From a bacterium (lineage in GTDB: Bacteria > Arandabacterota > Arandabacteria > Arandabacterales > Arandabacteraceae), in assembly GCA_025774845.1 (NCBI GenBank), contig JALGZP010000002.1, positions 348 through 64,347 of the forward strand: DNA of 64,000 nucleotides. The letters are read 5' to 3'. The position numbers and the translations under genes were made by a program. This document shows, one piece after another, positions 14,057 through 32,981 of this stretch (positions are counted from its first letter, which is position 1; every line of letters starts with the position of its first letter). The notes below the pieces were generated by a model, which worked only from the letters and a program-made list of their open reading frames with translations, ran no database searches and was not told the DNA's origin.

Positions 14057-16192
14057 CTATTCTAGCAGGATGATCTTGGTGGCCTCCGAGTGCGGTCTGC
14101 CCTCGCCGGTGACGGCGCTCAGCCGGAGGAAGTAGACACCGCTCGCCGCCCTGTTACCGGTTCCGGTCATTCCGTCCCAGGCCGCTTCATATCGGCCCGG
14201 TCCATCGTTGCGTTTAAGCAGGGTGCGTACGACTCTACCTCTCAGGTCAACCACGCTCAGTTCCACCCTCGCCCGAACGGGCAGGCTGTAACGGATGGTT
14301 GTACCTGAAGCAAACGGGTTTGGCCGGACCCGCTCGAGCCACACCCCACTCCGGGGTCGATCCGGTACGTCATCCACCGACGCAGTCCCCAGGAGCTCGT
14401 GTATGGTATCGATCGCGAGTTTCGGTTTGTGGCCGAAGTAGGGCAGTACCACAATCCCGTCCCGGTCGATTATGAAATTACGGCCGAACGGTAACCCGGT
14501 GTTGGGCTGGGTATAGTGAATCGAGGCGACAGCGGTCGAATCGTGCATAACGGGACCTCTGAGGTAATAGTTATCCCAGAGGATAAACATCCAGGCCAGG
14601 GTCTCTTTGTAGTAACCGCCTGCATTGAGGAGGACTGTAACGACTTCGGGGTTATCTTCGAATTCCTTAACTATCGTGTTCTGCATGTCCGCGACCGCGG
14701 GCAGGCAGGCCGGTCACCACGAGCCGTAAACAGCCATCCAGATGATCTTTCCCAGATGGTCGGAGAGCGTGAAGGTTCCCTCCTCGTATTCACCGGTCTC
14801 ATGGTTCTTCGTGAAGATGGGAAGTGTGAAGTCCACAGCCGGTTCGCCGGGATCGAGATGGTCGGTGCTGGCGAACACCTGGATCGAGAGAGGGCTTTCG
14901 TCGGGGTCGTTGGAGTAGAAGTAGACTATGCCGTAGCCTTCTTCCGGCGTCCCGTCGTGGATGATATTAAAGGTCGCCGTATCCCCTGGGGCGATCGTTC
15001 CACCGGTGTACGAAAGGCTGACAGCCGGTACCGTCACAGTTACGCTGTCGATTATGAGATCACCTGCACCGAAGTTGGAGAGGGTCACGAGCTTCGTGCC
15101 CCCACTGGGTGTAAATCTTATCCTGGAAGTACTCGGTGTTATGTCGGCCTGTGTGCTCATCGAAGCCGGGATCAGCCGGTAAACGTCCATCGAGTTCCAG
15201 GTTGAGCAGAGAACCAGGTTACCATCCGAACCCACTCCGCCGAAACTTCGGAATACAGCATTGGCATTCCTTCGTGCGCCCTTCTCACGTGCGACCAGGG
15301 TTAGGTCACCGTTCGGTGCAACGCTGTATACGCGAACCCCGGAAAAGTCGGTTACGGCGAGATAGTCTTCTACCCACTCCATGTCCTCGGCGGCAGCGTC
15401 GACCGGGTATACCGTGCGGTCAAGGGGATTACCGTTCCGGTAGTGAATCACACCGGCTCCACCCGCCGCAAGATAGACATGACCGTTACGCGAGACCACT
15501 CCCTCAGCCGTCCCCAACGCTGTGGAAAGGTCATCGCCATCCAGGATTACGGGGTTTCCCACATCGGACACGTCGACCACCTTAAGACCACCTGCACCAT
15601 CGGCAACGTATGCCGTGTCGCCTGTGACAACGATATCGAAGGCATCAACGAAGCCTGAGTCCAGCGAGCCGGTCAGAGCAGGATTCAGGGGGTCGGTGAG
15701 ATCATAGACACGTATGCCATGGCTGTGGGCTGCAACGTACAGGTAATCTCCATCGACACACATCTTCTCGAAGTAGACCTTGCGCTGCTTCACTGTCTTC
15801 CGCCGGTAGAGAGTGTTGCCCACACGCTCGATCACTGCGAAGCCGGTTGTAAGCGATACATCGGGGTGGTGAAGATTGGCGTAGATGAAATTGCCGTCCT
15901 TGAGATAGATGTCCCGCGAGTTGATATTCATCATACGTGATATGTAGCTGTTGGTTCCCTCGACGGGGAGAGCAGTGAGATCCACCACGGCAAGAGCGAG
16001 GTTACTCGATACAACTGCCAGCGAGTCCCCAAGCGGGATTACATCGAGGAGCTCATCCGGTTCGCCGGGCTGCCGCAGGTAGCGGCCTGTGTACTCCAGG
16101 ACCATGTCCTGTGAAAAACCCTGCGATGCGAGAACAACAAGAAGAGCGAAGAAGAGCCAGTGCCTGCGAAAACCATCCTTGATTAGATCCAT
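14057..16192 (-). CDS. Exported LVIVD-repeat beta-propeller / Ig-like / TlpA-type redoxin protein with in-frame UGA (candidate Sec, W-U-P-A-C) and Por/FlgD-Ig C-terminal domain
   Basis: Track ORFs 14714..16282 and 14057..14686 share one frame and are separated only by TGA at 14714..14716. Read-through gives DFTLP...FTLSDHLGKIIWMAVYGSW-U-PACLPAVADMQ. Start taken at MDLIKDGFRRHWLFFALLVVLASQGFS. LVIVD-like repeats include GIRVYDLTDPLNP and GLKVVDVSDVGNP. Confidence 0.75.
14681..14704 (-). promoter_or_regulatory. Candidate bacterial SECIS hairpin for UGA 14714
   Basis: mRNA folds as CUGC-CCGC-GGUC-GCGG-(ACAU)-GCAG, starting 10 nt after the UGA. Apical loop is GGUC with G at +18/+19. Confidence 0.5.
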
Positions 16193-16360
16193 CCGTCCAC
16201 CCCACTTTTCCTGAACCTCCACCCAATCATATACAGATGGATAGGAGCACATCCTGGCTATTCTGATGTAGGATGCACCCAACAGTTGCAGTCTAATCCG
16301 GACTTCTCATGGTGTGAGGGGCAGTAACCCCGGGCACTCCGCAGGAGAAAGCTGGAACAG

Positions 16361-16492
16361 CTATGCAGTTGGCTCGGAGACCTTCGCGGCCTTTGCCTTT
16401 GCCTTGATCTTCTTCTTTTTGCGAGGACGGGTGTTACCCGAGCTCTTCTTCCAGATCTTACCCTTCCGTGTCCTTCGATCTCCTCTTCCCAT
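16361..16492 (-). CDS. 30S ribosomal protein THX (bTHX), 43 aa, below the track length cut-off
   Basis: Hand translation gives MGRGDRRTRKGKIWKKSSGNTRPRKKKKIKAKAKAAKVSEPTA. This closely parallels the Thermus Thx sequence as I remember it ([25 protein letters not shown]). GGGAGG lies 8 nt upstream of the ATG. Overlaps the 3' end of the upstream gene by 35 nt in another frame. Confidence 0.7.
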   Translation of the reverse strand: MGRGDRRTRKGKIWKKSSGNTRPRKKKKIKAKAKAAKVSEPTA

Positions 16493-17750
16493 CTTTGATA
16501 CCTCCCATATAGATACAGTCCTCTATTTCGCCATACCCGCGGACGATGTCATCGGCAAAAGCGATGCAGGTCGGAGCACCGCAGCATCCGCAGTCGATCC
16601 TGGGCAGCGCATTGTATATTGTATCCTTCTGTTTCTTCTTTTCAATCGCTGTGGCCAGGTCGCTGGCAAGGGGCCGAAGCGGCCTTGGGGCCAGCTTCTT
16701 TTCAAGGGAATAATGTCCCTTGTTATACTTCTCTATAACTTCATCTCTGTCAACCGGAACCTTACCACCATACTTCCTGAGCAGGTGCAGAGTGCTGCTG
16801 CGTGCGACGTACATGTTCTCAACGACAAGCGATCCACCGATGCAACCACCCAGACACGAGGAGAGTTCTACGAATTCCACATCTCTGAGTTTGGAGTTCT
16901 CGATATCGTCAAGGATCTTTGTAACATCACTCATACCGGAAACGGCGATCGAATGCTCCGCACCTATCAGCCTGGTCATCTCCCCCAACATGGACCAGCC
17001 CGCACCGAACTTGAAGTCCCGGGCAACATCCTCGTCAATCTCTTCATTCTCGAGGTCGGCGACCGCTGAGAAGAGAGGAGCAAAGACATCGACGATCGAC
17101 ACGGCACCGTCTATCCAGGATTTCGCCTTTTCGGCAGGCTGTTTGATTGAGACGATCTTTGCGGGGCAGGTCGTGATATAGACTACACCGATCCCCCCGA
17201 CATCCACACCAAGCTCACGTGCCAGATTCTGCTTAACATCTCTGGCAGCTATCTCCCTGGGAACATCTACAGGCACAACCCTGCCGGTCAGATCCGGGTA
17301 CTTCACCTGAATCAACCTCACGACCGCAGGGCAGAACGAGGAGAGAACGGGGAGCCTGCCCCTGTGTTGGGCAATGGACTCATCGATCGCAATGCTCACC
17401 TCTTGACAAGCGAGGGATAGATCACACACATAGTCGAATCCGATTCGCTTGAGCCCCATTATCACTTTTCTCGGATCGACCTCGGGTCTGAACTGCGAAT
17501 AGAGCACCGGTGACGGTAGTGCTACCTTGTACTTGAAATCCAGAGACTGCGCAAAGGGATCCGTAAGCGGCACGATCGCACCCGAGGGACAGACATTTAT
17601 ACACTCACCGCAATCCACGCACAGCTCTTCAATCACCCTCGCCTTGCCGTCACGCATCCTTATCGCAGCTGTGGGACAGCTGCGCATACACTTCATTCTC
17701 CCGTCGCATCTTTCGTCAACGAACTCTATGGGGTGATAGTATTTTCCCAT
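16458..17750 (-). CDS. [FeFe]-hydrogenase large-subunit homologue of the putative sensory type (no PAS domain)
   Basis: 430 aa. N-terminal 2x[4Fe-4S] region (CMRSCP, CVDCGECINVCP). H-cluster-like motifs are SSFCPAV (L1, proton-relay Cys replaced by Phe), TTCPAK (L2) and SSCLGGCIGG (L3, Ser where catalytic enzymes have Met). C-terminal CGCCGAPTC-x16-C. Confidence 0.8.
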   Translation of the reverse strand: MGKYYHPIEFVDERCDGRMKCMRSCPTAAIRMRDGKARVIEELCVDCGECINVCPSGAIVPLTDPFAQSLDFKYKVALPSPVLYSQFRPEVDPRKVIMGLKRIGFDYVCDLSLACQEVSIAIDESIAQHRGRLPVLSSFCPAVVRLIQVKYPDLTGRVVPVDVPREIAARDVKQNLARELGVDVGGIGVVYITTCPAKIVSIKQPAEKAKSWIDGAVSIVDVFAPLFSAVADLENEEIDEDVARDFKFGAGWSMLGEMTRLIGAEHSIAVSGMSDVTKILDDIENSKLRDVEFVELSSCLGGCIGGSLVVENMYVARSSTLHLLRKYGGKVPVDRDEVIEKYNKGHYSLEKKLAPRPLRPLASDLATAIEKKKQKDTIYNALPRIDCGCCGAPTCIAFADDIVRGYGEIEDCIYMGGIKDGKRRSKDTEG

Positions 17751-17752
17751 CG

Positions 17753-18184
17753 CTAATCCGTGTGAATCGTTATGGCCAGTTTGGTGCCTTTCCCCACCTC
17801 GGATTCGATCTCGAAGTCATCTGCATTACGCTTAATGTTCGGAAGCCCCATTCCCGCCCCGAAACCCATCTCCCTCATTTCAGCGGTCGCGGTCGAATAG
17901 CCCTCCTCCATCGCCCGTTCGATACACTCGATGCCCGGGCCTTCATCCTCTAGCTCGATTCGTATGCTTGTCGGGGTGGCCGACAATCTCACCACCGCCC
18001 TCTTCGCATACATGACGATATTCATCTCGGCTTCATAGGATGCAATGGCCGCCCGTCTGATCTTCACCGGATCGAAACCGATTTCCTTGAGAATCGATTT
18101 TATCTCCGTAGAGACCGTACCCGCGTTGGTGAAGTCCTTGCCAAGGACTGAAAATTCTTGGAAGAACAGAACTTCATCGCTCAT
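17753..18184 (-). CDS. RsbW/SpoIIAB-like anti-sigma-type ATPase (HATPase_c) protein
   Basis: 143 aa. EDEGPGI...GFGAGMGLPNIKRNAD...GKGTKLAITI are GHKL ATPase G-boxes. ATGA overlap with the upstream gene. Confidence 0.75.
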   Translation of the reverse strand: MSDEVLFFQEFSVLGKDFTNAGTVSTEIKSILKEIGFDPVKIRRAAIASYEAEMNIVMYAKRAVVRLSATPTSIRIELEDEGPGIECIERAMEEGYSTATAEMREMGFGAGMGLPNIKRNADDFEIESEVGKGTKLAITIHTD

Positions 18185-18540
18185 TTTCCACCAATCTGGC
18201 TTCCGGATTTCATGCCCTTTTCATAGAGGCGGCCGCATGCTTCGAACATCGAAAGCGGACATGACAACAGCGGAATACCCTTCTGTCCGGCCAGCTTCAC
18301 CGCCTCCTCGTCGGGCGTCTTCCCGCGTACATAGACTATCGCTCGCACCTCTGCTACATGAGAGGTTATGACGGATTGGACGTTCCTTAAGCCCGTGAGA
18401 AGAATCCCGCCAGGTGCGGCGAACGCAAGCACATCGCTCATGAGATCGGCGCCGCACACTTCCTCGTAGTCGTGATCGAGCATATCTTCTCCCGTAATCA
18501 CCTCACACTCAATTACCTGGCATATTTCCTTTAGTGTCAA
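18181..18540 (-). CDS. DRTGG-domain-like small protein
   Basis: Track ORF is 18181..18606. I place the start at TTG 18540..18538, which sits 5 nt after GCAGGAGG and just past the upstream stop. Product (M)TLKEICQVIECEVITGED...GGILLTGL...VYVRGK resembles the small DRTGG proteins of NuoEF/[FeFe]-hydrogenase operons. Confidence 0.6.
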   Translation of the reverse strand: MTLKEICQVIECEVITGEDMLDHDYEEVCGADLMSDVLAFAAPGGILLTGLRNVQSVITSHVAEVRAIVYVRGKTPDEEAVKLAGQKGIPLLSCPLSMFEACGRLYEKGMKSGSQIGGK

Positions 18541-18556
18541 TGAAGCCTCCTGCTGT

Positions 18557-20875
18557 TCATACTCCCAGATACTTGCATATCGTACCAGCCGCGCCAACGC
18601 CCTCAACGAATGCTTCTTCGGCTATGACCGGAGACCGGCCAAAACCGCAGGCGAAGATGCCGGAAGCACTTGTGGCGAATGGGGCGGCCAGCGAATCACC
18701 CGTCGCTATGAACTTAAGATCGTCAAGCCTGACTCCGGCCACGCGCGCCAGCTCTTCGTGGTCCGAGCCGTGGAGATGCCCGACTGAAAGCACCACGGCG
18801 TCAAACTCGTTGGAAACACTCTTCCCATCCGTCGAGTCGACGGCTACCTTGAGAGCCCCTTCCGTAGTAATCCGTGGCTCACCCGTGATCTCGATGAAGT
18901 TTACCCCGAGGTCGGCGGCATCCGTGTAGAGATCCTCCTCGAAGCCAAAAACCCTGATCCCTCTGTGGAACACGGTTACCTCTGCGCCGGGATTGTCCTC
19001 TTTGAGTCTGAGCACGTTGGCCAGGGCTTGCTTGCAGCAGTACCTGCTGCAGTAGGGGTGTTCGGCGCTGCGTGCACCTACACACTGAATCATCGCCACC
19101 CGCTTCCAGGAAGCCCGGCCTCCGGTGATACGCTGGCGGAACTCACTCTGGGTCAGGATTGCCTCGTGCTCTCCATGGTGGTACCCCGCAGGCACATAGG
19201 CGTTCGCGCCGGTTGCCATCAGCATCGCACCTGCTTCGAGCGTCTTCTCACCCTGGGGGGTGGAAACCTTGACCGTGATCTTTCCATCCGACGTTTCTAC
19301 GGCCGCTACGGTGCTTTCCTTAAGAACCGTTGCAACCGGGTTCGTCTCTATGGCTTTCACAAAACCGTCAACCACATCGACCTCTGTGCCTTCGGCGATG
19401 GCGGCGAAAGTCAGAGGCTTGCCTATTTCCGCCGACTTCTCAACCACTGTCACTTCTACACCACGCCGCACGAGCTCACTCGCGGCGGCGAGACCCGAGG
19501 TGCCTCCGCCGACCACAACCACACTCGCGGGTCTCTTCTCCCTCCCGGCCTCCGGCAGCTGCGAGGCAGAGGAGCCCTCCGTGACCGAGGCCAATTTCGC
19601 CTTCAGGTCGCCGCTCAGGCCTTCACCACCCACAATCGTGACGCTTCCCCGGGGGAGACCCGAGACCGTCTCAAAGAGCTCTTCATGACTGCCTTTGTGA
19701 CATCCCACCACGACTATCGATGATGTCTCATCCAGATTCGCCCTCATCGCGGCTCTGCCGTCCTTGTAACAAAGGAACGGGTGGACGATACAAAGCCCTT
19801 CGACATCCGACCGGTTCACACCTGCAAGCTCGAGACCGTATTCACAGGCATACACGAACGTCTTGCCCTTGTGCCGGGGTGACTGCTGAGACGGCACAGC
19901 CCCTGAGGAGTCGAGTGATCTGGTTGATGCCGCCAATGCATCGATCACACTCCGGTAAACCGGAGCCGGTCCGCAAACGGCACCACCAAATGATACGGCT
20001 TCGGTCTCGGCGATGAGACTTCCTATGCTGCGTTCAATGAACCCGAACTTGTTGACCCTGATCCCCGCCGTCCTGGCATAGCGCTTGAAGCCGCCAAGGG
20101 CATGGACACCAACGGCAAGCACGACGAGATCGAATTTCGCTTCGGCGGTTTCACCCGCGGCTGAGTATCCAACACTCAGGGTCCCATCCCCGGGATCCTC
20201 CTTGACCGAGGTCACCTCTCCCTCGATGAACTCGATCCAGTTCTCGCCCTGAAGCTCCGAAAGATCGAGCTCACTCCCTTTACCCACTGGTCTTAAGCCC
20301 CTGTGGAATACATGGACCTCCACATCGCCGGCAAGCTTCCTGGCATGTCTGGCCTGTGAAAACGTACGCGAGCAGCAGTCCGATGAGCAGAAGTTCGCGC
20401 CAATGCCCTCTTCCCTCGAACCGACACACTGAATGAAAGCGATTCGTTTCGGTATGTCCCCGTCAAAGGGTCTTACCAGGAGTCCGCCGAATGGACCCGT
20501 GGGACTCACCAGACGCTCGAATTCGAAACTGGTTATCACGTTCGCAGCGTCCGCGTAGCCGAGCTCCTTCTTCCCGTCGGGGTTAAAGACCTGACCGTCG
20601 GACGTGAATACTATGGCGTCTGCTTCGAGCTCGACCCTGCTTGCCGCTTCATCGTAGACGATCGCCTTGGGATCACACTCTGCAAGACACAGCCCGCAGC
20701 CGATACAGCGCCGGCAGCTCAGGCACCGTGCTGCTTCCTTAAGAACCATCTCCTCCGAAAGCCCGAGTTCAACCTCTTCGAAGTTGAGATTCCTCTCTTC
20801 AAGCGGCAGTTCGGGCATCCTATTCCGCTCGGAAGGAATGTCTTTGAACTCGGGTATGAACTTCGGTTTCTTCAT
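18557..20875 (-). CDS. Large HdrA-related flavoprotein: N-terminal Fe-S module plus two HdrA-like modules
   Basis: 772 aa. CLSCRRCIGCGLCLAEC, then two CxGxR...C..CC signatures (IQCVGSREEGIGANFCSSDCC and IQCVGARSAEHPYCSRYCC) and one GGGTSG FAD site. Confidence 0.8.
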   Translation of the reverse strand: MKKPKFIPEFKDIPSERNRMPELPLEERNLNFEEVELGLSEEMVLKEAARCLSCRRCIGCGLCLAECDPKAIVYDEAASRVELEADAIVFTSDGQVFNPDGKKELGYADAANVITSFEFERLVSPTGPFGGLLVRPFDGDIPKRIAFIQCVGSREEGIGANFCSSDCCSRTFSQARHARKLAGDVEVHVFHRGLRPVGKGSELDLSELQGENWIEFIEGEVTSVKEDPGDGTLSVGYSAAGETAEAKFDLVVLAVGVHALGGFKRYARTAGIRVNKFGFIERSIGSLIAETEAVSFGGAVCGPAPVYRSVIDALAASTRSLDSSGAVPSQQSPRHKGKTFVYACEYGLELAGVNRSDVEGLCIVHPFLCYKDGRAAMRANLDETSSIVVVGCHKGSHEELFETVSGLPRGSVTIVGGEGLSGDLKAKLASVTEGSSASQLPEAGREKRPASVVVVGGGTSGLAAASELVRRGVEVTVVEKSAEIGKPLTFAAIAEGTEVDVVDGFVKAIETNPVATVLKESTVAAVETSDGKITVKVSTPQGEKTLEAGAMLMATGANAYVPAGYHHGEHEAILTQSEFRQRITGGRASWKRVAMIQCVGARSAEHPYCSRYCCKQALANVLRLKEDNPGAEVTVFHRGIRVFGFEEDLYTDAADLGVNFIEITGEPRITTEGALKVAVDSTDGKSVSNEFDAVVLSVGHLHGSDHEELARVAGVRLDDLKFIATGDSLAAPFATSASGIFACGFGRSPVIAEEAFVEGVGAAGTICKYLGV

Positions 20876-20877
20876 AT

Positions 20878-22566
20878 CTAACTCAGGTACTCCTTCATTG
20901 AATCGGCTGCTATGTGGCCCGCGCGTATTGCCTCAATCACCGTGGCAGGCCCGGTCACACCATCCCCCCCCGCATATATGCCGGGACGGTTGGTGGCCAT
21001 AGTCCTTTCGTCAACCACAAACGAGTTCCAACGCGATATCTCGAAGCCATGCTCGTCCGGGAGGAACGTGATATCCGGCTGCTGGCTGATGGCCGGAATG
21101 ATGAGATCGGCCTCGACGGTGAATTCCGAACCCTCGACAGGAATCGGCCGTCTTCGGCCGCTTGCATCGAGTTTGCCCAGTCTCATCTTGGTGCATTCCA
21201 TGCCGGCTACCTTTCCGCCTTTACCCAGGATCTTGACCGGTGCGGCAAGGTAGTGAATCTTGACGCCCTCCTCCTCCGCTCCCTCGACCTCCCAGTCGTT
21301 TGCAGGCATCTCCCTTCGCGATCTCCTGTAGAGTATGGTGACCTCCTCACAACCCAACCTGAGCGCCGTCCTTGCCGAATCGATCGCCGAGTTTCCGCCG
21401 CCTATGACTATCACCTTGTTACCCGGTCTTGTCTTGTCTCCGAGATTCACATCCCGGAGGAACTTTATACAGTCAAGAAAACCTTCGTAGTCGTCTTCCC
21501 CGGGCACCCTGAGTTTAAGACCTTCATATGCACCCACGCCCAGGAAGATTCCCTTAAAGCCCTGCTTGAAGAGGTCGTCGACCGTGAACTCCTTCGTGAG
21601 AGGGGTGTTGAGTTTTATCTCGACACCAAGATCTTCGATGTATGCAACATCACTCAAGAGGATGTCCCTGGGCAGCCTGTATTCGGGAATTCCGAGGTGC
21701 ATCATGCCGCCGGGCACGGGAGCGGCCTCAAAAACGGTTACCCGATAACCTTCAAGCGCGAGATCGTGTGCAACCGTAAGACCCGCGGGGCCGGCCCCCA
21801 CCACTGCCACTTTGGTCTTAAGGTCTTTCTTGGGCTTCGGCGGTACGAACTTGCCGGCCTTTCGCTGTGCGACCTCATAATCGCTTACAAAACGCTTGAG
21901 AGCATCAATCGCAATCGCCTCGTCCTGACGCCCCCTGTTACAGACCGTCTCACACGGATGAGGACAGATCCGGCCGCAAACTGCTGGCAGCGGATTCCTG
22001 TCACGAATAACTCTTATTGCTTCTTCGTACCGGCCACCGGCGATCAGTCCCACGTACCTTCTTATGTCTATGTGAACGGGGCATCGCTCCTGGCAGGCGG
22101 GTGTTTCCTTCTCGATATTGTACTCGCCCCCGAAAGTACGCGGCCCCGCAAAGTCTATCGCGGTCCTGAGCATCAAACCCTCGTTATAGCTATCATATGG
22201 CTTTATCGGACAGACAAGCAGGCACTCGGCGCAGGCATTACAGGCCTCGGTTACCCTGCCCGGCTGGTGAGTTAGACTGACTTTGATCCTGTCGTCTTTC
22301 TTACGCACGCTCCCGAGGGTCGAGTTCGTGAGTACCCTGATCCCCGGGTGAGCAAGAACCTCATTCACCAACTTGGATGAAAGACAGACCGATGGGAAGC
22401 CCTCGGGAACCACCCGTTCCTGCTTGAGCAAGAGCCCGCCCAGGAACGGCGACTCCTCAACAAGCGCAACCCTGGCGCCCGATCCCGCAACCTCGAGTGC
22501 TGCCGTAAGCCCGGTGATACCGCCACCGACAACAACTACTTCCCTCGGGGAAGACTTATCACTCAT
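20878..22566 (-). CDS. GltD/NfnB-like NAD(P)H oxidoreductase subunit with an N-terminal HdrA-like FAD fragment
   Basis: Start taken at MSDKSS (ATGAGTGA overlap with the mvhD stop). VVVGGGITG...ACNACAECLLVCP is followed by CGRICPHPCETVCNRG and VAVVGAGPAGL...PGGMMHLGIPEYRLPRD...VIGGGNSAIDSAR, typical of GltD/NfnB. Confidence 0.8.
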   Translation of the reverse strand: MSDKSSPREVVVVGGGITGLTAALEVAGSGARVALVEESPFLGGLLLKQERVVPEGFPSVCLSSKLVNEVLAHPGIRVLTNSTLGSVRKKDDRIKVSLTHQPGRVTEACNACAECLLVCPIKPYDSYNEGLMLRTAIDFAGPRTFGGEYNIEKETPACQERCPVHIDIRRYVGLIAGGRYEEAIRVIRDRNPLPAVCGRICPHPCETVCNRGRQDEAIAIDALKRFVSDYEVAQRKAGKFVPPKPKKDLKTKVAVVGAGPAGLTVAHDLALEGYRVTVFEAAPVPGGMMHLGIPEYRLPRDILLSDVAYIEDLGVEIKLNTPLTKEFTVDDLFKQGFKGIFLGVGAYEGLKLRVPGEDDYEGFLDCIKFLRDVNLGDKTRPGNKVIVIGGGNSAIDSARTALRLGCEEVTILYRRSRREMPANDWEVEGAEEEGVKIHYLAAPVKILGKGGKVAGMECTKMRLGKLDASGRRRPIPVEGSEFTVEADLIIPAISQQPDITFLPDEHGFEISRWNSFVVDERTMATNRPGIYAGGDGVTGPATVIEAIRAGHIAADSMKEYLS

Positions 22567-23347
22567 ATGCAGTCTCACCGTTACCTGAAAGTTCCCACAT
22601 CGGGGTGTTTCCCACGACGGAGTGTATCTCAGCAAAACCCATCTTCTTTAGATCCGCCATCTGTCTTACGAGAATCTTCGGTGCCGTGTCCATCTTGGTG
22701 GCCAGCTCTTTTACCGAATGGGGTTTACCCTTGAGCCGTTCCAGTATCTCTCTCAGTCTGAATTCATCCATCGCTATCTCGTCAAAGAGCCTACCTATCT
22801 CATGGGCCGTGAACTTCTCCCCGTAGAGGTTACCCTTCTCGGTGAATTCCACGATCTTGCCCGTGACCCATCTGATCTTACGGCCGCCGAGCGCCTTCCC
22901 CGCAGCCTGAAGCTTGACCTCAAGATCGTTCTTATCGATGCCCTCGGGCTTACCCAGGGGACCCAGCTCGGTGATATCCTTCTGGAACTCACCTGCGAAC
23001 TCGACGAACTTGTTGCCCTCAGCGCTCGACATCATACGCATCCGGAGTCTGGCAGGATCTATACCCGCCATCCTGAGGACCCGCTTGGTGATTTCCATCT
23101 TGCCCTCGGCATGGAGGTTACCCGAGGTATAATGGCACTCTCCACGCTTGCAGGCGCCCACGAACACTCCGTCCGCACCCGCCAGCAATGACTCGATGAC
23201 CATCACAGGATCCACCCTTCCCGAACACATCACTCTCACAACCCTGATGTCGGGTGCATATTGAAACCTCGCTACCCCGGCGAGGTCAGCCGCACTGTAT
23301 GCTCACCAGTTACAGCAGAAAGCTATGATGTGCGGTTTGAAACTCAT
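22559..23347 (-). CDS. mvhD: MvhD-like iron-sulfur subunit with in-frame UGA (candidate Sec in CCNW-U)
   Basis: Track ORF starts at 23239. Extending upstream in frame gives [47 protein letters not shown], with TGA at 23303..23305. The ATG at 23347 lies 2 nt after the upstream stop. Without the extension the conserved N-terminal Cys block of MvhD is missing. Confidence 0.8.
23267..23285 (-). promoter_or_regulatory. Candidate bacterial SECIS hairpin for UGA 23303
   Basis: mRNA folds as CCUCGC-CGGGGUA-GCGAGG. The 6-bp stem starts 18 nt after the UGA and loop Gs lie at +25 to +28. Confidence 0.6.
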
Positions 23348-23349
23348 AC

Positions 23350-25038
23350 TCACTCCTTTTCGAAAGCTGCCCGTATCTGGGCCGTCAATTGCTCGTCGCT
23401 ATAATGCTTCATTGTAATTGCCCCCCGGTAGCAGGTCGCTCCGCACGTTCCGCAACCCTTGCAGGCGACATCGATTGTCCGTGCTTTCTCGCCGGCCTCG
23501 GTCTCAATCAGCTCAATCGCTCCGTATGGACAGAGCGCCACACAGAGTCCGCACCCCCTGCAGTCTTCCTCGGTTATGAATGAGACAATCGGTTCAACCT
23601 TGACCCGACCGCTTTCGAGGAACGTGGATGCACGCGACGCGGCACCGAGTGCCTGCTCGATGCACTCCTGGATGCCGGCGGGCCACCGTGCGGTTCCGCA
23701 GACAAAGATCCCGTCGGTCGCAAAGTCAAGCGGTCTGAGCTTCACGTGGGCCTCGAGGAAGAAGCCGTATTCATCGAGCGGGACCTTGAGCATCCTGGAA
23801 AGAGCTTCATTCGTACCGGCCGGTACAAGCGGGGTCTCAAGCACAAGGAGATCATACGGGAGCACCATCTCTCTCCCAAGTATGGCACTCGTCACCTTGA
23901 CCTCGCCCTTCTCGGCAAGCGGCGGTGCGTCGTCTGGGTAATTCACGAACCTGACACCGGCTTCCTTGGCATCCATCAGCAGGCTCTCGTTCTTGATCCC
24001 GTAACACATGAGATCCCGGTAGAGCATGGTCACATCAGATTTCCACTTCTTGCGAATGAGGATCGCATTCTTGATTGCCGTCATACAGCATATACGCGAG
24101 CAGTAAAGCCTGTCCCGCATTCTCGACCCGACGCAACCGATCATGACAACGTTCTTAGGACGGGTCCCGGGCTTTGCGAGCAGGCCTTCAAGTTGAAGTT
24201 GGGTTACAGCCCGCTTTGAATCAAAGCCGTACTGTCCTTCCGGAACCAGTACTTCCGCTCCTGTCGCCAGGATTATGATACCTGCCGTCACAGGTTCCTT
24301 AAGCGATGTCACGGATACGATGTAGTTACCTATGTAACCCTTGACCTCGGTCACTTCCGATGACTTGAGAACCTTGATGCGCCGGGCTTTTCCTACACGC
24401 CCCACCAGACCCTTCACATACTCCGCCGCCGGTTTCTCATGCGGGTAGATCCAGTTGACCGCCCTTAAGAGCCCACCGAGTTGTTTCTGTTTCTCAACCA
24501 GAACCACCTCAAACCCTCGTCTCGCAAGCTCGAGCGAAGCGGTCATGCCCGAGATACCTCCACCGATCACAAGCGCGCGTTTCGTCACATCCCCGATGAT
24601 GGGTTCCATCGGCTCAAGATACGCCGCCCGTGCTACACCCATCCTTATGAGGTCCTTCGCCTTCTCCGTAGCCGCCTCGCGATCTTCCTTATGCACCCAC
24701 GAGCAGTGCTCCCTGATATTGACGAATTCAAAATAGTAGGGATTAAGCCCGGCATCTTCGCATGCCGCACGGAATGTTGGCTCATGTGTCCTCGGTGTAC
24801 AGGCGGCGACAACGACCCGTTCAAGTTTGTTATCGGTAATGGCCTGACGGATGTCATTGATCCCGGCTTCCGAACACGAGTAAAGATTCTCTCTCACAAA
24901 GATCACATTTGGAAGACCCGACGCGTAATCGGCCACGGTTTTGGCATCCAGGAAGCCCGCAATATTCGTCCCGCAGTTACAGACGAAAACCCCTATACGC
25001 GGGCCGTTCACCGTGTCTTTCCTGCCTTGCTTACTCAT
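23350..25038 (-). CDS. HdrA paralogue with intact N-terminal Cys domain and C-terminal 2x[4Fe-4S] ferredoxin, lacking the FPTxDCSxC block
   Basis: 562 aa. RIGVFVCNCGTNIAG, VVVAACTPRTHEP, NIREHCSWVH, VIGGGISG, IGCVGSRMRDRLYCSRICCM, and CRGCGLCVALCP / CKGCGTCGATC. ATGA overlap with the upstream gene. Confidence 0.85.
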   Translation of the reverse strand: MSKQGRKDTVNGPRIGVFVCNCGTNIAGFLDAKTVADYASGLPNVIFVRENLYSCSEAGINDIRQAITDNKLERVVVAACTPRTHEPTFRAACEDAGLNPYYFEFVNIREHCSWVHKEDREAATEKAKDLIRMGVARAAYLEPMEPIIGDVTKRALVIGGGISGMTASLELARRGFEVVLVEKQKQLGGLLRAVNWIYPHEKPAAEYVKGLVGRVGKARRIKVLKSSEVTEVKGYIGNYIVSVTSLKEPVTAGIIILATGAEVLVPEGQYGFDSKRAVTQLQLEGLLAKPGTRPKNVVMIGCVGSRMRDRLYCSRICCMTAIKNAILIRKKWKSDVTMLYRDLMCYGIKNESLLMDAKEAGVRFVNYPDDAPPLAEKGEVKVTSAILGREMVLPYDLLVLETPLVPAGTNEALSRMLKVPLDEYGFFLEAHVKLRPLDFATDGIFVCGTARWPAGIQECIEQALGAASRASTFLESGRVKVEPIVSFITEEDCRGCGLCVALCPYGAIELIETEAGEKARTIDVACKGCGTCGATCYRGAITMKHYSDEQLTAQIRAAFEKE

Positions 25039-26330
25039 ACGCCGACTTCCTCATATATCCTGGCCGCCGCCCGCTCTGCGGCGGCACTGGCCTGGCTTAC
25101 CGCCTCGGGTATATCACACGGCCCCTTACAGAACCCACAGGCGAAGATGCCTGCCACACTGGTATCCGCCGGTTGCTCGGGGGGACACAGGATGAAACCG
25201 TACTTGTCCGCCTTGATCCGGAGAAGTTTCGCGAGCCCAAGCGCTCCCCTTGACGGCATCGCCGCGGTTGCCAGCACGACCATTTCGGTCTCAAGCGATT
25301 CGACTTTTCTCTTTCTCGTGTCCTCGTACCACACGATGGGATTCCCGTTGGGACCATCCTCGATCTCGGCAACCCTTCCCCTTATGTACTGGACCCCGTA
25401 CTCTTCCGCCGCCCGCTTCTCGTACTTCTGGAACCCCTTGCCCACGTTCCGGAGGTCCGTGTGGAAGACGTAGGAAACCGATTCGGGATCGTGTTCCCTC
25501 GCCAGCATGGCATCCTTGATCGAATACATACAGCAAACGCTCGAGCAATACGCGCAGTTGTTGAGATCTCTCGAGCCCACACACTGTACGTAAGCCACCT
25601 TCTTGGCCAGCTTGCCGTCGGAGGGTCTGTGGAGATGCCCTCCGGTGGGACCGGTCGCATTTATGAGTCTCTCATACTGTAAGCCGGTTATTACATTCTG
25701 GATCTTGCCAAAACCGTAGTGGGTAAGCGCCGTCGGGTCGAAGATATCAAGCCCGGTCGCGACTATTACCGCATCGACGTCGAGAGCAAGGATCTTGTCC
25801 TTCATCTCGTAGTCTATCGCGCCCTTGTCGCAGATCTTCTTACACACGCCACACTTGCCCTTGGTGAAGTATATGCAGTGGTCGCTGTCTATGGTCATTA
25901 CCGCGGGAATGCCCTGTGAGAAGTAAAGGTATATCGCTTTCCGTTTCCTCAAGTCCATGTCGAAGGCATCGGGTGCTTTTCCCGGGCACTTGCTCACACA
26001 GTCTCCACAGGCATTACAAATTTCTTCATCGACGTAGCGGGTGCGCTTTCTCACCTTGAGTGAGAACTTGCCGCCTTTCCGCTTAAGCCCCTCTATCTCA
26101 CTGTACGCCAGCAGTTCGACCCTGGGATGCCGACCGGCATCCAGCATTTTAGGCGCGAGAATTCATATGGAGCAGTCATTGGTGGGAAAAGTCTTATCAA
26201 GCTGTGCCATCACCCCGCCTATGCTGGGTTTCTTCTCGATCAGATAGACTTGAATACCCATCTCACCGAGGTCTAGCGCAGCCTGAATACCGGCAATCCC
26301 ACCGCCGATCACTGCAACCTTACCTTCCAC
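25035..26330 (-). CDS. hdrA: HdrA core (FAD domain plus inserted ferredoxin) with in-frame UGA (candidate Sec in FPTNDCSI-U)
   Basis: Track ORFs 26163..26372 and 25035..26147 share one frame and are separated only by TGA at 26163..26165. Read-through gives [15 protein letters not shown]...[29 protein letters not shown]...[12 protein letters not shown]...[22 protein letters not shown]. Start placed at GTG 26330, 8 nt after GGGAGG; the ATG at 26372 is an alternative. Confidence 0.85.
26122..26144 (-). promoter_or_regulatory. Candidate bacterial SECIS hairpin for UGA 26163
   Basis: mRNA folds as CUGGAUGCC-GGUC-GGCAUC(C)CAG. A 7-bp perfect core extends to 9 bp with one bulged C. It starts 19 nt after the UGA and has a GGUC tetraloop. 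Confidence 0.7.
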
Positions 26331-27462
26331 GCTTCTTACCTCCCAATGATCCGGCCACAAGCGTGACCGCATCGGTTATCTCTATTTGACCTGAGCAATC
26401 CTCATCCCGCAGGGCGCATCTCAGGTGGATATTGCACTTCGGACAAGCGGTAACAAGCACCTGCGCGCCTGTTGAGATGGCTTCATCAAGTCTCTCGACC
26501 TGGATCTTCTTGTTGACCCTCGAGCAGCTCACCCAGTTGCTTGAACCACAGCAAAGTGCATCCTTACCCCTTCGCGTCATTTCCGCCAGCTCGAGATCGG
26601 GTATGCTCTTGAGCACGTTCCGAGGTTCCTCGATAATGTCATCAGACTTGGCGAGCCTGCAGGGATCGTGGTAGGTCACTTTGGTTTTGCGTGAATTCAA
26701 TCGTATGTCACCCATCTTTTCACTCAGAAGATCAAGGAGGAAGACCACCTCGAGCCCCATACCCCTTACGAACTCCGAATAGACGTGTTTGAACATGTGA
26801 TAGCATTCCGGACAGGAGAACACGACACGTTTTGCACCCGTCTTCTTTATAGCTGCGACATTACGTTTAGCAAGTTCCTTTACGAGATCGCCTCCCCCGG
26901 TCCAGTACTCATCATGACCGCAGCACACCTCACCTTCGCTGACGGCAGGTATGATGCCCAACTGATTGAGCAGACGTACGCTTGAGTTCCCGATCCCCCT
27001 GCCGTCGAAACCGATTTCCTTGAACACGACATCAAGAAAAGGCAGGCAGCCTCCGAAGTAATACGTGCTTGATCTCGACCGTGTCTTCGCGCCACGCCCC
27101 AGCCAGGAAGCCTGTCGTCTGAACCCTGGCATACGTTGCAGGTCGATCAGGGCTGCGAGTGTGTCCGCATGGGTGCAGACACCGCTCTCACCAACCTGTC
27201 TTGCGCGCTCCCTCATCGATCTCATGAAACCCGTGAAATCAACCGTGGACGGACACCGGAGATCACAGGTGCCGCAGGTGAGACAGCTCCACATTTCCGG
27301 GTCGTGCACACTTTCATCCTCACTGAAGAGGAGCGCCTTCTCCACGGTCAGCCGCGGTGAGTAGGCGTCGCGATGCCTGGAAACGGGACAACTGCCCGTA
27401 CAGATACCGCACTCGAGGCAGAGATATGCCTTTGTCTTATCTACGGCCGCGCGAAGCGACAC
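26320..27462 (-). CDS. HdrD-like (fused HdrC/HdrB) Fe-S protein with two CCG domains
   Basis: [12 protein letters not shown] and [12 protein letters not shown] (HdrC-like), then VCCGHDEYW and [11 protein letters not shown] motifs. Start placed at GTG 27462 after AGGAGGAGG; the track start at 27510 is a TTG. Confidence 0.8.
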
Positions 27463-27880
27463 GTTTCCTCCTCCTGGTTGTTTTCTTGAACTGCTTGAGG
27501 AAGTTCCCAAGCACCCTCTTGTATTCCTTGCCCCCGCTCTCCGATATCATGTGAAAGCCGAGGCGTTTCCCCGGTACTCCGGCAATCTCAAGTATCTCCT
27601 GCGTCTCCTTTACTATCTCTCCGCATCTCTGGCTTCCGTTGTAGTAATGACAGTCTCCCTCCTCACAACCCAGTACCAGTACTCCGTCGAAACCCTTGGC
27701 AAACAGCTTCAGCAGGAAAGACACCTTGACCAGACCTGTACATTTGACCGGTATGACAGTCGGACCCGCGTCACAGGTGAAGCCATCCTTCGCGGCATTC
27801 TCCATCGCTGTAAGCGGATGCCATTTGCACGGCACTATTGCCACCTTCGTTTTGATGCTATATACCCCCTGCCGCTTCAA
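27437..27880 (-). CDS. Second MvhD-like Fe-S protein (all-Cys version)
   Basis: 147 aa. VPVKCTGLVKVSFLLKLFAKGFDGVLVLGCEEGDCHYYNGS parallels VMCSGRVDP...GACKRGECHYTSGN of the neighbouring MvhD. Start codon uncertain (the track start is a TTG with no clear RBS). Confidence 0.7.
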   Translation of the reverse strand: MKRQGVYSIKTKVAIVPCKWHPLTAMENAAKDGFTCDAGPTVIPVKCTGLVKVSFLLKLFAKGFDGVLVLGCEEGDCHYYNGSQRCGEIVKETQEILEIAGVPGKRLGFHMISESGGKEYKRVLGNFLKQFKKTTRRRKRVASRGRR

Positions 27881-29612
27881 TAGTCGTATCGATCAGACGG
27901 GCCGTCATATCGGCGTGCGAAAGCGCGCCCGAAGGGCAAACTGAGACACACACTCCGCAACCCACACACTGAATCGGAATCACCTCTGCCCGCTTCAAGC
28001 CGTCTTCGTCAACCACGAGCTCGATGGCGCCGTGCCGGCACACCTCTTCACAACGGCCGCACCCCCTGCACAGGTCCCGGTCGACAGTGGTCGTACGCGC
28101 AATACGCTCTACCTTGCCGAGACTGATGAGGTCGAATGCCCGCGAGGCGGCGCCGTAACCCTGTACGATCGACTCGGTGATCGTCGACGGCCAGTGCGCA
28201 CTCCCCGCAACGAAAACACCTCTCGGAGCATACTCCTCAGGCCTCACCTTAAGCCTCGGCTCCACCAGGAAGCCGTAGCTGTCAGTCGGTATCTTGAACA
28301 TCCGGGCGAGTGATGTGTTCGTCGCCGGGGGCAGCATCGGCACCGCAAGCACAATGCGGTCGAACGGTATGTGGGCTTCCATCTCGGATATCTGGTCGTA
28401 GACCTCAACCGTGGTGTCTCCGAGGACGGGCGGCTTCTCCGGTGAGTACCGGATTATGTCGACACCCATGTCCCTCGCCCGGTCAAGATCACCGGCATAA
28501 CCTGCAAAGCCCCGCGACAGTATCGTCACCTGCGAAGCCGGGAACTTCTGCTTGATCAGGATCGCGTTCTTGATTGAGGCCGTACAACATATACGTGAGC
28601 AATAAGGTCTTTCATCGTTCCGCGATCCCACACACTGGATCATCACGACGTCTGAACCGGGATTGTCCCCACGCTTGAGTATGGCTTCGAACTCAACCTG
28701 GGTAACCACCTGGTCGCGTTCACCGTAGCCAAACAGACCCTTCGGCGTAAGCAGGTCCGCCCCGGTGGCAACAATTATCACACCTGCTTCGATCTTTTCG
28801 CCGCCGGTGAGCTCAATCTCGAAATTCCCGACATGACCGCGGACCGAAACCGGTTCCACCCCGGTTTTCACCTCGACCGCGCCCGCATCGATGTTCCGTG
28901 ACTGGCCGTTGAGAAACTCGGATGCTTCTATGTAGGACGGGAAGACGATGTTGAGTTGTTTTAGCAGTCCCCCGACACTTTCATCCTTCTCTACTATGAT
29001 TGTCTTTACACCTCTCGAAGCCATGGCCGTGGCCGCCGACATACCCGCTATACCACCACCCAGCACAACGCACACCGGTTTGATATCGGCTTCTACCTTT
29101 TCCATCGGACTCGTGCCGGCTACACGGGCAACAGCCATATTTATGAGCCCCAGTGCGCCCGATGTCGTTGCCTTCTTTGCTCCCGGCGGGGCCGAGCACA
29201 ACCTGCTTATGTCCGCAAACTCCACCAGTGAAGGATCGATACCCGACTGCGCCAGAATGTTCCTGAAGAACTTGCCGTACAACCGCTCACTGCTGCCGGC
29301 GACAACTACCCGTGACAGTCCGCGTTTGACAATCAGAGCGCCGATCGCATCTATCTTCCCGATCGTGCAGGGGTAGTCCTGGACCTTGACGAGGGCCACC
29401 TCGGGATTTGCCGCCACCTGTTTCTCGAGTGAGGTGATATCGAGCACACGTGAGAGATCGCTCTCACACTGCGATATTACGACGGCGACACCTGTACCCT
29501 TTGCCCGGACCGGCCGCGTTTGGGATTTCTTTGCAGGGCGTTTCTTGGCGGGTCGTTTCCGGACCCGCGTCGCCTTCTTCGACTTCTTCTTTGTCCGTGT
29601 CTTTCCCGGCAT
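27858..29612 (-). CDS. HdrA paralogue with degenerate (Cys-poor) N-domain and a Lys/Arg-rich N-terminal tail
   Basis: Start taken at ATG 29612 (GAGGAG upstream). MPGKTRTKKKSKKATRVRKRPAKKRPAKKSQTRPVRAK, then VLGGGIAGMSAA, IQCVGSRNDERPYCSRICCT, and CRGCGRCEEVCRHG / CVGCGVCVSVCP. Confidence 0.8.
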   Translation of the reverse strand: MPGKTRTKKKSKKATRVRKRPAKKRPAKKSQTRPVRAKGTGVAVVISQCESDLSRVLDITSLEKQVAANPEVALVKVQDYPCTIGKIDAIGALIVKRGLSRVVVAGSSERLYGKFFRNILAQSGIDPSLVEFADISRLCSAPPGAKKATTSGALGLINMAVARVAGTSPMEKVEADIKPVCVVLGGGIAGMSAATAMASRGVKTIIVEKDESVGGLLKQLNIVFPSYIEASEFLNGQSRNIDAGAVEVKTGVEPVSVRGHVGNFEIELTGGEKIEAGVIIVATGADLLTPKGLFGYGERDQVVTQVEFEAILKRGDNPGSDVVMIQCVGSRNDERPYCSRICCTASIKNAILIKQKFPASQVTILSRGFAGYAGDLDRARDMGVDIIRYSPEKPPVLGDTTVEVYDQISEMEAHIPFDRIVLAVPMLPPATNTSLARMFKIPTDSYGFLVEPRLKVRPEEYAPRGVFVAGSAHWPSTITESIVQGYGAASRAFDLISLGKVERIARTTTVDRDLCRGCGRCEEVCRHGAIELVVDEDGLKRAEVIPIQCVGCGVCVSVCPSGALSHADMTARLIDTTIEAAGGI

Positions 29613-29629
29613 GGTCTCCTCAAACAAAC

Positions 29630-30277
29630 TCAGGGACTTCCGTAATGCGTCTCACACACAATACACCTGAAAGTGTCCTTCGAGCCTCCAACGCTGTGAA
29701 GACTCCTTCGCGCAAATACTTTCCTAAGGTCAAACGTTCTGGCCGGACAGATCGTGGTACAGGTACCGCATCCCACGCAGACATTCGATTCCTGGCCGAA
29801 GGGTGGTACCACCTCACTCTCAGGACCTCGATTGGCGAATCCGATCGCCCCGACCCCGACGATCTCCTTGCAGGCCCTGACACACATCCCACACAGATAG
29901 CACTCTTCCTCACCCTTCGGAAACGGATTGGTTTTGACTCCGAGCTCCTTTGCCTTGTGCCTTATGATTTCGATGTCGGGGCACCGGGCGAGAAGCAGGG
30001 TTATGATCATCCTGCGGATTTCTGTTACCAGCTTTGTCTCCGTCCTCACAACCATTCCGTCCGCCACCGGTGTCACACACGAAGCCATCGTTCTTGTCCG
30101 CCCCCCCTGCTTGACCTCGACAACGCACAGCCGGCACGACCCGATCGGTGTCAGGGCTTCATGGTAACAAAGTGTCGGGATCTCGATCCCCATCTCCTTC
30201 GCTACCTCGAGGATGGTCCGGCCCTTTTCGGCCTTCCGGTTCCTGCCGTCGATCCTGATGCTCAATGTGTCGCTCAT
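29630..30277 (-). CDS. NuoG/HydA-N-terminal-like [2Fe-2S] plus 2x[4Fe-4S] ferredoxin subunit with no catalytic domain
   Basis: 215 aa. IRIDG...CYHEALTPIGSCRLCVVEV...ASC (plant-type 2Fe-2S), then CYLCGMCVRAC and CVGCGTCTTICP. Confidence 0.8.
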   Translation of the reverse strand: MSDTLSIRIDGRNRKAEKGRTILEVAKEMGIEIPTLCYHEALTPIGSCRLCVVEVKQGGRTRTMASCVTPVADGMVVRTETKLVTEIRRMIITLLLARCPDIEIIRHKAKELGVKTNPFPKGEEECYLCGMCVRACKEIVGVGAIGFANRGPESEVVPPFGQESNVCVGCGTCTTICPARTFDLRKVFARRSLHSVGGSKDTFRCIVCETHYGSP

Positions 30278-32113: not shown

Positions 32114-32981
32114 CCAGAACCTGCGGGATCTTCTCCTGGGTCATCTTCCCGTAGAATTTCCCGTCAACAACGAATACCGGAGCCAGTCCGCAGCAACCCA
32201 CACATCTCACGGACTCAAGCGAGAACTTGTCATCATAGGTGGTCTCACCCGTGTGAATTCCCAACTCCCGCTCGAAACTGTCGAGAAGGTTGGTGCCTCC
32301 CCTCACATGACAGGCAGTCCCCAGACACACGTGGATCATGTGTCTCCCCCTCGGAAGCAGGCTGAATGACTTGTAGAAGGTCGCAATTCCATAAACCCTC
32401 GGAAGATCGATGTTGACTCTTCCTGCGACAAACCTCAGCGCCTCCTGAGGCAGGTAGTTGAGTTCCTTCTGTATATCCTGCAAGTAGGAAATCAGCATGG
32501 ATTCTGAAAAGCGATGTTTGGCAAGGATCCCGTCAATCGCAGCAAGACTTGCGGGATCGTCAAAACTCTTGATCCTCCGCTCCCTGGCTTTCTCCCTGGT
32601 TTCGACCTCCATGCGTTCCTTACCCAACGCGTGGGATATCATGTCGGAGAGTTCCGGCATGGGGCTGAACTTGGAGATGTAGTTGTAGGCTCCTCTCCGC
32701 ATCGCCTCCACGGCCCCTTCGACGGTCGGAGTTGCCGTCTCGCCTATGATCGGAACCATCGGCATGATATCGTGGACGGTCTTCAGAAGCATCAGGCCGT
32801 CATCATGAGGAAGATCGAGATCAATGATAACGAGATGGGGAGGTCTTGCACCTATCTCGGAAAGCAAGGCGGCCCCGTCGGGAGCCAGTCGTACCGCATA
32901 CCCGTGGCCGGTCAGTGCGCTTTCTAACTCACTCCGCCTTCCGGGTTCTTGCTCCAATACTAGAAGAACAAGTTCGATCAA
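32100..32981 (-). CDS. Receiver (REC)-domain fused to NuoE/HydC-like [2Fe-2S] subunit
   Basis: 293 aa with a TTG start after AAAGGA. N-terminus LVLLVLEQEPGRR...HLVIIDLDLPHDDG...ISKF follows a CheY-like pattern. C-terminus HVCLGTACHVRG...VRCVGCCGLAPV carries the NuoE Cx4C...Cx3C cluster motif. Confidence 0.8.
   Translation of the reverse strand: MIELVLLVLEQEPGRRSELESALTGHGYAVRLAPDGAALLSEIGARPPHLVIIDLDLPHDDGLMLLKTVHDIMPMVPIIGETATPTVEGAVEAMRRGAYNYISKFSPMPELSDMISHALGKERMEVETREKARERRIKSFDDPASLAAIDGILAKHRFSESMLISYLQDIQKELNYLPQEALRFVAGRVNIDLPRVYGIATFYKSFSLLPRGRHMIHVCLGTACHVRGGTNLLDSFERELGIHTGETTYDDKFSLESVRCVGCCGLAPVFVVDGKFYGKMTQEKIPQVLGGYD

Follow-up and report, generated by a model that had tools for sequence, protein, structure and literature searches.

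A hidden in-frame UGA codon in a long MvhD/BamF-like adaptor gene points to a selenoprotein in a lineage near Candidatus Eisenbacteria

Identification of the gene

The 64-kb window analyzed here (64,000 nt of contig JALGZP010000002.1) carries on its minus strand a gene, 22559..23347, that is very probably a genuine selenocysteine (Sec)-decoding MvhD/BamF-like gene. Read directly from the sequence, an ATG at 23347..23345 opens a frame of 262 residues that runs to a TGA stop at 22561..22559. The only internal in-frame TGA (23305..23303) corresponds to residue 15, within the motif C12-N-W-U15 (CxxU), and the frame is otherwise open; this codon was assigned to Sec by the alternation of Cys and Sec among relatives and by alignment to Cys16 of the M. 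marburgensis MvhD (9sw2_D). The ATG is located 2 nt past the TGA stop (23352..23350) of an upstream HdrA-like gene, and a putative Shine-Dalgarno sequence, AGGAG (23353..23357, in aaaAGGAGtgagtATG), lies 5 nt 5' of it. The mechanical list of open reading frames (ORFs) starts the gene at GTG 23239, and P0001, an identical protein in the database, begins with the methionine of MCSG (ATG 23230); the true start is 39 codons 5' of the called start. A preliminary description of this stretch had proposed the ATG, the internal TGA, the 2-nt gap and the resulting N-terminal translation, and every coordinate holds on the minus strand. It had also stated that the called ORF lacks the N-terminal Cys block of MvhD; this is the case, and the in-frame extension restores the complete PF02662 profile. 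The observation is therefore confirmed, and its interpretation as a selenoprotein is supported by the reading frame, the Cys/Sec alternation, the constraint on the RNA, the domain architecture and the homology of the position, from which insertion of Sec at residue 15 is predicted.

With the TGA read as Cys, the read-through product matched the Pfam family PF02662 (FlpD/MvhD) over the whole profile (positions 1-123 of 123, residues 7-129, E 3.4e-47, 159.9 bits against a cutoff of 22.3). This [2Fe-2S] domain (22961..23329) contains the conserved Cys 11, 12, 41, 66, and 71 in addition to Sec15, and is approximately 50% identical to methanogen MvhD over 130 residues. The product aligned from residue 1 to the solved MvhD chains 8rvu_F (E 5e-41), 5odc_D, 7bkb_F, and 9sw2_D, and the TGA corresponded to the third Cys of the CCNWC block, as the preliminary description had anticipated. 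C41, C66, and C71 were invariant in the homologue alignment and C12 was conserved across the compared loci. Cys12 is a probable cluster ligand because, apart from the Sec position, it is the sole Cys of the CCNWC block that is retained in more than 70 homologues reading LCNWC. The cluster ligands are thus likely Cys12, Cys41, Cys66, and Cys71.

The protein is longer than the solved MvhDs (262 vs. approximately 135-140 aa), and the extra 130 or so residues comprise a helical linker followed by a C-terminal winged helix-turn-helix (residues ~197-246, 22610..22759; HTH_11, E 1e-4, below the Pfam cutoff), an extension of the BamF type. In an AlphaFold model of the Cys homologue P0103 (46% identical, pLDDT 86.7), the MvhD domain matched 5odc_D and 8rvu_F with TM-scores of 0.84-0.88. 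After a single alpha/beta domain (residues 8-129), the model continued with helices and a beta-hairpin wing at residues 213-254, with weak matches to ArsR/SmtB-family regulators. The protein is specifically a long BamF-type MvhD adaptor, composed of an MvhD domain and a winged helix, which adds to the earlier reading.

Most of the best database homologues are N-terminally truncated at or near MCSG. Among the 120 best matches, 116 were 212-256 aa long and covered 77-85% of the query, and those that were examined start at MCSG. The full-length Cys homologues P0095, P0103, P0109, and P0116 aligned residue for residue with the hidden N-terminus, reading FCCNWCSYA.ADLAGVSR.QY...IR.(I/V), and carried Cys at the TGA position. 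No orthologue was found that starts at the methionine of MRVMCSG without conserved sequence upstream.

Conservation of the UGA codon and its hairpin

The homologous codon was read in 160 loci drawn from reference genomes and metagenomes, some of which contained two mvhD genes, and was TGA in 26 cases, TGC in 77, and TGT in 84. Four additional "truncated" database homologues (53-70% identical) all proved to carry this TGA as well, within approximately 117-150 nt of unannotated sequence, which brought the total over 164 loci to 30 TGA vs. 161 TGC or TGT. The Cys/Sec alternation at this codon that would be expected from the preliminary description is thus present among the orthologues. Within the window's own clade (53-93% identity), TGA occurred in 12/12 members: the window, L001, L002, L081-L085, and L161-L164. 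The best genome match, L001, is a Candidatus Eisenbacteria metagenome-assembled genome (MAG; 93%), and L161-L164, the four truncated homologues, include an NC10 MAG. Syntrophobacterales and other deltaproteobacterial MAGs, together with the cultured Desulfoferrobacter suflitae DRH4, formed a second Sec clade, whose motif is CCTW-U-GYAAADFAGVSR. The loss of the N-terminus was systematic, as all 12 DNA-checked members of the window's clade hide their TGA-containing N-terminus.

A further observation was made in a Proteobacteria MAG (L020:3742-4467, JADFWI010000157.1), in which an mvhD-like gene has Cys at the usual Sec position and a TGA at VSG-*-HPGDCHY. This TGA corresponds to the Cys66 equivalent, a probable [2Fe-2S] ligand position, and may match the second Sec listed for archaeal VhuD.

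A hairpin of 6 bp is located downstream of the UGA at 23267..23285, with the stem CCUCGC (23285..23280) and GCGAGG (23272..23267) and the loop CGGGGUA (23279..23273); it covers the codons Asp21-Arg27 (D L A G V A R). It had been noted in the preliminary description, and it indeed begins at the 18th nt after the TGA, leaving a spacer of 17 nt. In the bSECISearch literature, a bacterial selenocysteine insertion sequence (SECIS) is a stem-loop within approximately 40 nt after the UGA that has G or GU in the apical loop. The hairpin fits this description in its 6-bp stem, its 17-nt spacer, and its G-rich loop with GU.

The diagnostic feature was the synonymous constraint on the hairpin codons, which was confined to TGA forms. 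Synonymous-site variation was scored in 7-codon windows (rank 1 being the most constrained), and the window covering codons +6 to +12 scored 0.077 in the window's Sec clade (rank 1 of 145), compared to 0.514 on average over the gene. The deltaproteobacterial Sec clade scored 0.04 against a mean of 0.48 (rank 4 of 171), and its lowest windows (0.0) started at +7 and +8. The three Cys clades gave 0.41 (mean 0.415, rank 116 of 238; clade A), 0.63 (mean 0.555, rank 131 of 172; clade B), and 0.66 (mean 0.539, rank 205 of 211; clade C). Frame conservation across the TGA together with this clade-specific synonymous constraint is far beyond chance. All 72 stem pair cells were paired in the 12 sequences of the window's clade, and in L163 two synonymous changes, GAC to GAT and AGG to AGA, replaced the closing C-G pair with U-A in a compensatory manner. 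In each of the three Sec clades, the hairpin was found over the Val codon and had G or GU in the loop.

Several results weigh against the assignment of the codon to Sec. Hairpins with a stem of 6 bp or more and with G in the first two positions of the loop occurred at the same distance from 5.7% of arbitrary positions in the window, and a comparable hairpin followed 5.4% of all its TGA triplets. The mean minimum free energy of nt +12 to +48 was -8.7 kcal/mol in 23 Sec forms and -8.2 kcal/mol in 160 Cys forms (p = 0.32); the forms are alike, and folding energy was rejected as a discriminator between them. The hairpin alone is thus not beyond chance, nor is its stability diagnostic by itself. 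The covariation is thin, consisting of a single event with five of the six pairs invariant, and 33 of 500 shuffles reached the observed score. The hairpin registers differ slightly among the three Sec clades (stem offsets, counted from the U of UGA, of 20-38, 20-37, and 25-37 nt), without a single SECIS consensus. Bacterial SECIS elements are loosely defined, and differing registers fit this. No SECIS family from Rfam, which has no usable bacterial SECIS model, matched in the whole window at the gathering threshold or in a permissive scan of 23180..23360; a mir-138 match in the latter (E = 4.6) was attributed to chance. Furthermore, a tRNA scan of the 64-kb window detected no tRNA and hence no tRNA-Sec, and a Pfam scan of essentially all its long ORFs detected no selA, selB, or selD. 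Finally, the structure model is that of the Cys homologue P0103 and not of the window protein itself.

Alternative explanations

The UGA might be read through without Sec, either by near-cognate suppression with tRNA(Cys) or tRNA(Trp) or because the code of the lineage is reassigned (code 4 or 25). This would agree with the lack of Sec machinery within the window, and reading the codon as Cys would yield a functional protein, but the explanation is very unlikely. TGA terminates 16 of the 39 long ORFs in the window, including the present gene and its upstream neighbor, and genome-wide reassignment was rejected on this usage. The in-frame TGAs of the window are confined to Cys-aligned redox positions, and the RNA element is selected only in TGA forms, which is predicted by SelB/SECIS recoding and not by near-cognate suppression. 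Moreover, Sec has been resolved experimentally at this position in BamF of G. metallireducens (bioRxiv 10.64898/2026.04.10.717634).

It is scarcely credible that the UGA is a true stop, with a product starting at GTG 23239 or ATG 23230 and the 14 upstream codons either a remnant or the code for a small leader peptide, although no other genuine stop codon is as common as TGA in the window and 116 of the 120 best database homologues are annotated in the truncated form. Protein-level conservation extends through the 24 codons from the TGA to the annotated start, which correspond residue for residue to Cys-form MvhDs and solved structures. The truncated protein would lack beta-strand 1 and Cys12, the probable cluster ligand. 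A good AGGAG site is present 5' of ATG 23347, and the TGA was seen between conserved flanks in 30 independent assemblies. A pseudogene or an assembly or sequencing error has a negligible probability: TGA is one base away from TGC and TGT and the contig is metagenome-assembled, but the TGA is not an error or a degraded codon because it recurs in these 30 assemblies (12/12 clade members from independent samples and 18 further loci), with no other frame disruptions and with a protein that is under purifying selection both before and after the codon.

Other in-frame UGA codons and gene neighborhood

Decoding of UGA as Sec by this organism is also argued for by three further in-frame TGAs in the window, all at Cys positions of redox motifs. 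One occurs in the partner HdrA-like gene (25035..26372, minus strand), which resembles the TrxR1-like part of BamE and lies 2.9 kb upstream of the mvhD/bamF-like gene. It has a hidden Sec in C67xxU70 (TGA 26165..26163), while the mechanical ORF covers only 25035..26147, and a strong hairpin, GGAUGC-CGGUCG-GCAUCC, follows at 26142..26125. This TGA was present in 18/18 loci that had a Sec-mvhD and sufficient flanking sequence, at a spacing of approximately 2.9-3.3 kb, and was also found alongside a Cys-mvhD in nine cases.

The second lies in a gene for a secreted protein of approximately 749 codons (14057..16282, minus strand), which was called as two ORFs and has a TGA (14716..14714) in YGSW-U-PAC. 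The codon falls inside an AhpC/TSA (peroxiredoxin-fold) domain (Pfam E 4e-8), the C-terminus is FlgD-Ig, and just a weak 4-bp hairpin (CCGC-GGUC-GCGG) follows; the product is likely a further selenoprotein. The third gene (37186..39195, minus strand) encodes a signal peptide, then NVGCG-U-GRC (TGA 39072..39070) and an Omp28-like domain. A hairpin, AAUCCA-AGUU-UGGAUU, occurs 12 nt after the TGA, and the called start (39048) omits the signal peptide of this secreted protein, which is possibly a UxxC selenoprotein. The ORF pairs 29630/29627 and 20878/20875 were rejected as read-through candidates, as they are not in frame.

The mvhD/bamF-like gene belongs to an operon on the minus strand, which contains the following members: a response-regulator receiver fused to a NuoE-like domain (32100..32981), a NuoF-like gene (30284..32113), a gene similar to the N-terminus of NuoG (29630..30277), an HdrA-like gene without a CxxC pair (27858..29627), and an HdrD-like gene with CCG domains (26320..27510). 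A short MvhD without the Cys16 equivalent (27437..27880) was also present. As the preliminary description had stated, this second MvhD-like gene has no UGA at the equivalent position; it reads PCKWHPL, and Cys is absent as well. The partner HdrA-like gene described above is followed by a second one (23350..25038), directly upstream of the mvhD/bamF-like gene, which contains an N-terminal CNCG cluster domain, an FAD domain without a CxxC pair, and a C-terminal ferredoxin domain, and which ends in TGA as a true stop. GltD-like (20878..22635) and 772-aa HdrA-like (18557..20875) genes come after the mvhD/bamF-like gene. The proposed thiol/selenol relay residues occur in only one HdrA/MvhD pair of this operon, and both are Sec there.

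The receiver-NuoE fusion at the head of the operon is unusual. It contains a thioredoxin-like [2Fe-2S] domain, and its architecture suggests that electron input may be under phosphorylation control. Directly downstream of the Hdr-like genes, the region 16458..18606 (minus strand) contains a [FeFe]-hydrogenase-like gene (Fe_hyd_lg_C, Fer4, and a putative Fe-S domain) together with two small ORFs that had no Pfam match, and may represent a sensory hydrogenase-like module.

Proposed function

Two additional sets of conserved cysteines, MvhD Cys16 and HdrA Cys202/Cys205, have been placed between the MvhD [2Fe-2S] cluster and the bifurcating flavin adenine dinucleotide (FAD) (PMC13580544). The HdrA pair of M. 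maripaludis consists of Cys and Sec197, between which a selenylsulfide may form (PMC13518236), and in G. metallireducens BamF the MvhD cysteine was seen structurally as Sec19 (bioRxiv 10.64898/2026.04.10.717634). In the alignment to 9sw2_D, its residue 16, the cysteine of NWC, corresponded to U15, and its His68 and Asp71 (numbering from PMC13580544, which mentions conservative substitutions at these positions) corresponded to Lys67 and Glu70 of the window protein. By comparison with MvhD Cys16 and BamF Sec19, Sec15 would be an extra redox-active residue beside the cluster and not a cluster ligand.

According to the mechanism proposed here, translation would begin at ATG 23347, and the UGA at 23305..23303 would be recoded as Sec15 under the direction of a bacterial-type SECIS hairpin within the coding sequence (23285..23267), 17 nt further on, before translation continues to the TGA at 22561..22559. 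Automatic gene callers end the frame at this UGA and begin anew at the MCSG methionine, with the loss of the first beta-strand, a ligand Cys, and Sec. The product would function as an electron-transfer adaptor, with an N-terminal domain that, as judged from conservation, binds a [2Fe-2S] cluster and a C-terminal winged helix that probably docks on the neighboring NuoG/BamI-like subunit, as in BamF. By thiol/selenol chemistry, Sec15 and the CxxC/CxxU pair of the HdrA-type flavoprotein may help electrons to pass from the [2Fe-2S] cluster, which handles one electron, to the bifurcating FAD, which handles two.

A more speculative proposal, which we consider rather unlikely at present, is that Candidatus Eisenbacteria and Syntrophobacterales possess an uncharacterized double-Sec electron-bifurcating complex. 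It would consist of NuoEFG-like subunits, a split BamE-like HdrA pair, HdrD-like and GltD-like subunits, and the BamF-like adaptor, without BamBC; both ends of the relay would be Sec (U15 of MvhD and C67xxU70 of HdrA), and a selenol/selenenylsulfide relay would be mechanistically required. If this were true, the strict co-occurrence of the two Sec codons (18/18) would reflect the required relay, and the complex would be a naturally occurring case in which to test how HdrA-type bifurcation passes from one-electron to two-electron transfer.

Relation to known systems and implications

As the preliminary description had stated, MvhD/VhuD (PF02662) is a known selenoprotein family; it has been listed as such (PMC13188914, PMC9312934), with the motif CxxU (PMC13188914). 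Among the closest counterparts by description is BamF of the class II benzoyl-CoA reductase of G. metallireducens (Gmet_2083), whose annotation reads "hydrogenase delta subunit; HTH motif" (PMC1924859). BamF exceeds other MvhDs in length by more than 100 aa and has a winged helix-turn-helix that docks on BamI (bioRxiv 10.64898/2026.04.10.717634). Both proteins are long adaptors with a C-terminal winged helix-turn-helix, both have Sec at the cysteine beside the [2Fe-2S] cluster (Sec19 in BamF, Sec15 here), and both are encoded near HdrA-like (BamE-like), HdrD-like (BamD-like), and NuoE/F/G-like (BamGHI-like) genes. On the other hand, the equivalent of BamE is split into two genes here and its pair is CxxU instead of Cys59-Cys62, and the preprint gives two Rossmann-fold domains for BamF, whereas the P0103 model has one alpha/beta domain and a helical linker. 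In place of BamB and BamC, the GltD-like and 772-aa HdrA-like genes follow, so that the substrate module may be a different one, and a Pfam scan of essentially all long ORFs revealed no BamB/BamC-type tungsten aldehyde-oxidoreductase in the window. The complex should not be called a benzoyl-CoA reductase because BamB and BamC are absent from the window; by analogy, it resembles BamDEFGHI and would work like the Bam electron module.

The methanogen VhuD/MvhD proteins (Methanococcus VhuD; 5ODC, 8RVU, 9SW2) share the [2Fe-2S] domain and the CxxU motif (PMC13188914), as well as the pairing with a Sec-containing HdrA (PMC13518236). They differ in that the putative SECIS of the present gene is of the bacterial type and lies within the ORF, whereas archaeal SECIS elements are in the 3'-untranslated region. 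In addition, no MvhA/MvhG hydrogenase genes were found nearby, and the present protein has a 130-residue C-terminal extension and one Sec, compared to two listed for archaeal VhuD.

Among bacteria, Desulfobacterium autotrophicum HRM2 contains four Sec-mvhD genes (mvhD1, 2, 3, and 5) next to Sec-hdrA/hdrL (PMC2702500). Its arrangement, a bacterial Sec-MvhD directly downstream of Sec-HdrA/HdrL, is similar by description, and its HdrL is a fusion of the Hdr/glutamate-synthase type that is comparable to the GltD-like neighbor here (PMC2702500). D. autotrophicum belongs to a different phylum, whereas the best match of the present gene is the Candidatus Eisenbacteria MAG (93%).

The family, the Sec position, and the operon type have therefore already been described, and the present gene adds a member. 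No mention of selenocysteine for Candidatus Eisenbacteria was found in a literature search, and the gene extends the Sec-containing MvhD/BamF-type adaptors to a lineage near this group. The present gene and its HdrA-like neighbor are mis-annotated as N-terminally truncated proteins, and the same is true of at least 12 relatives that were checked and probably of the majority of the 116 short homologues; models and metabolic inferences based on such proteins are wrong because the cluster ligand and Sec are missing. A specialist would not be surprised by these results, and their main value lies in the correction of the annotation and in the coupling of two Sec sites, as the Sec of the adaptor was always accompanied by a Sec in the CxxU pair of HdrA.

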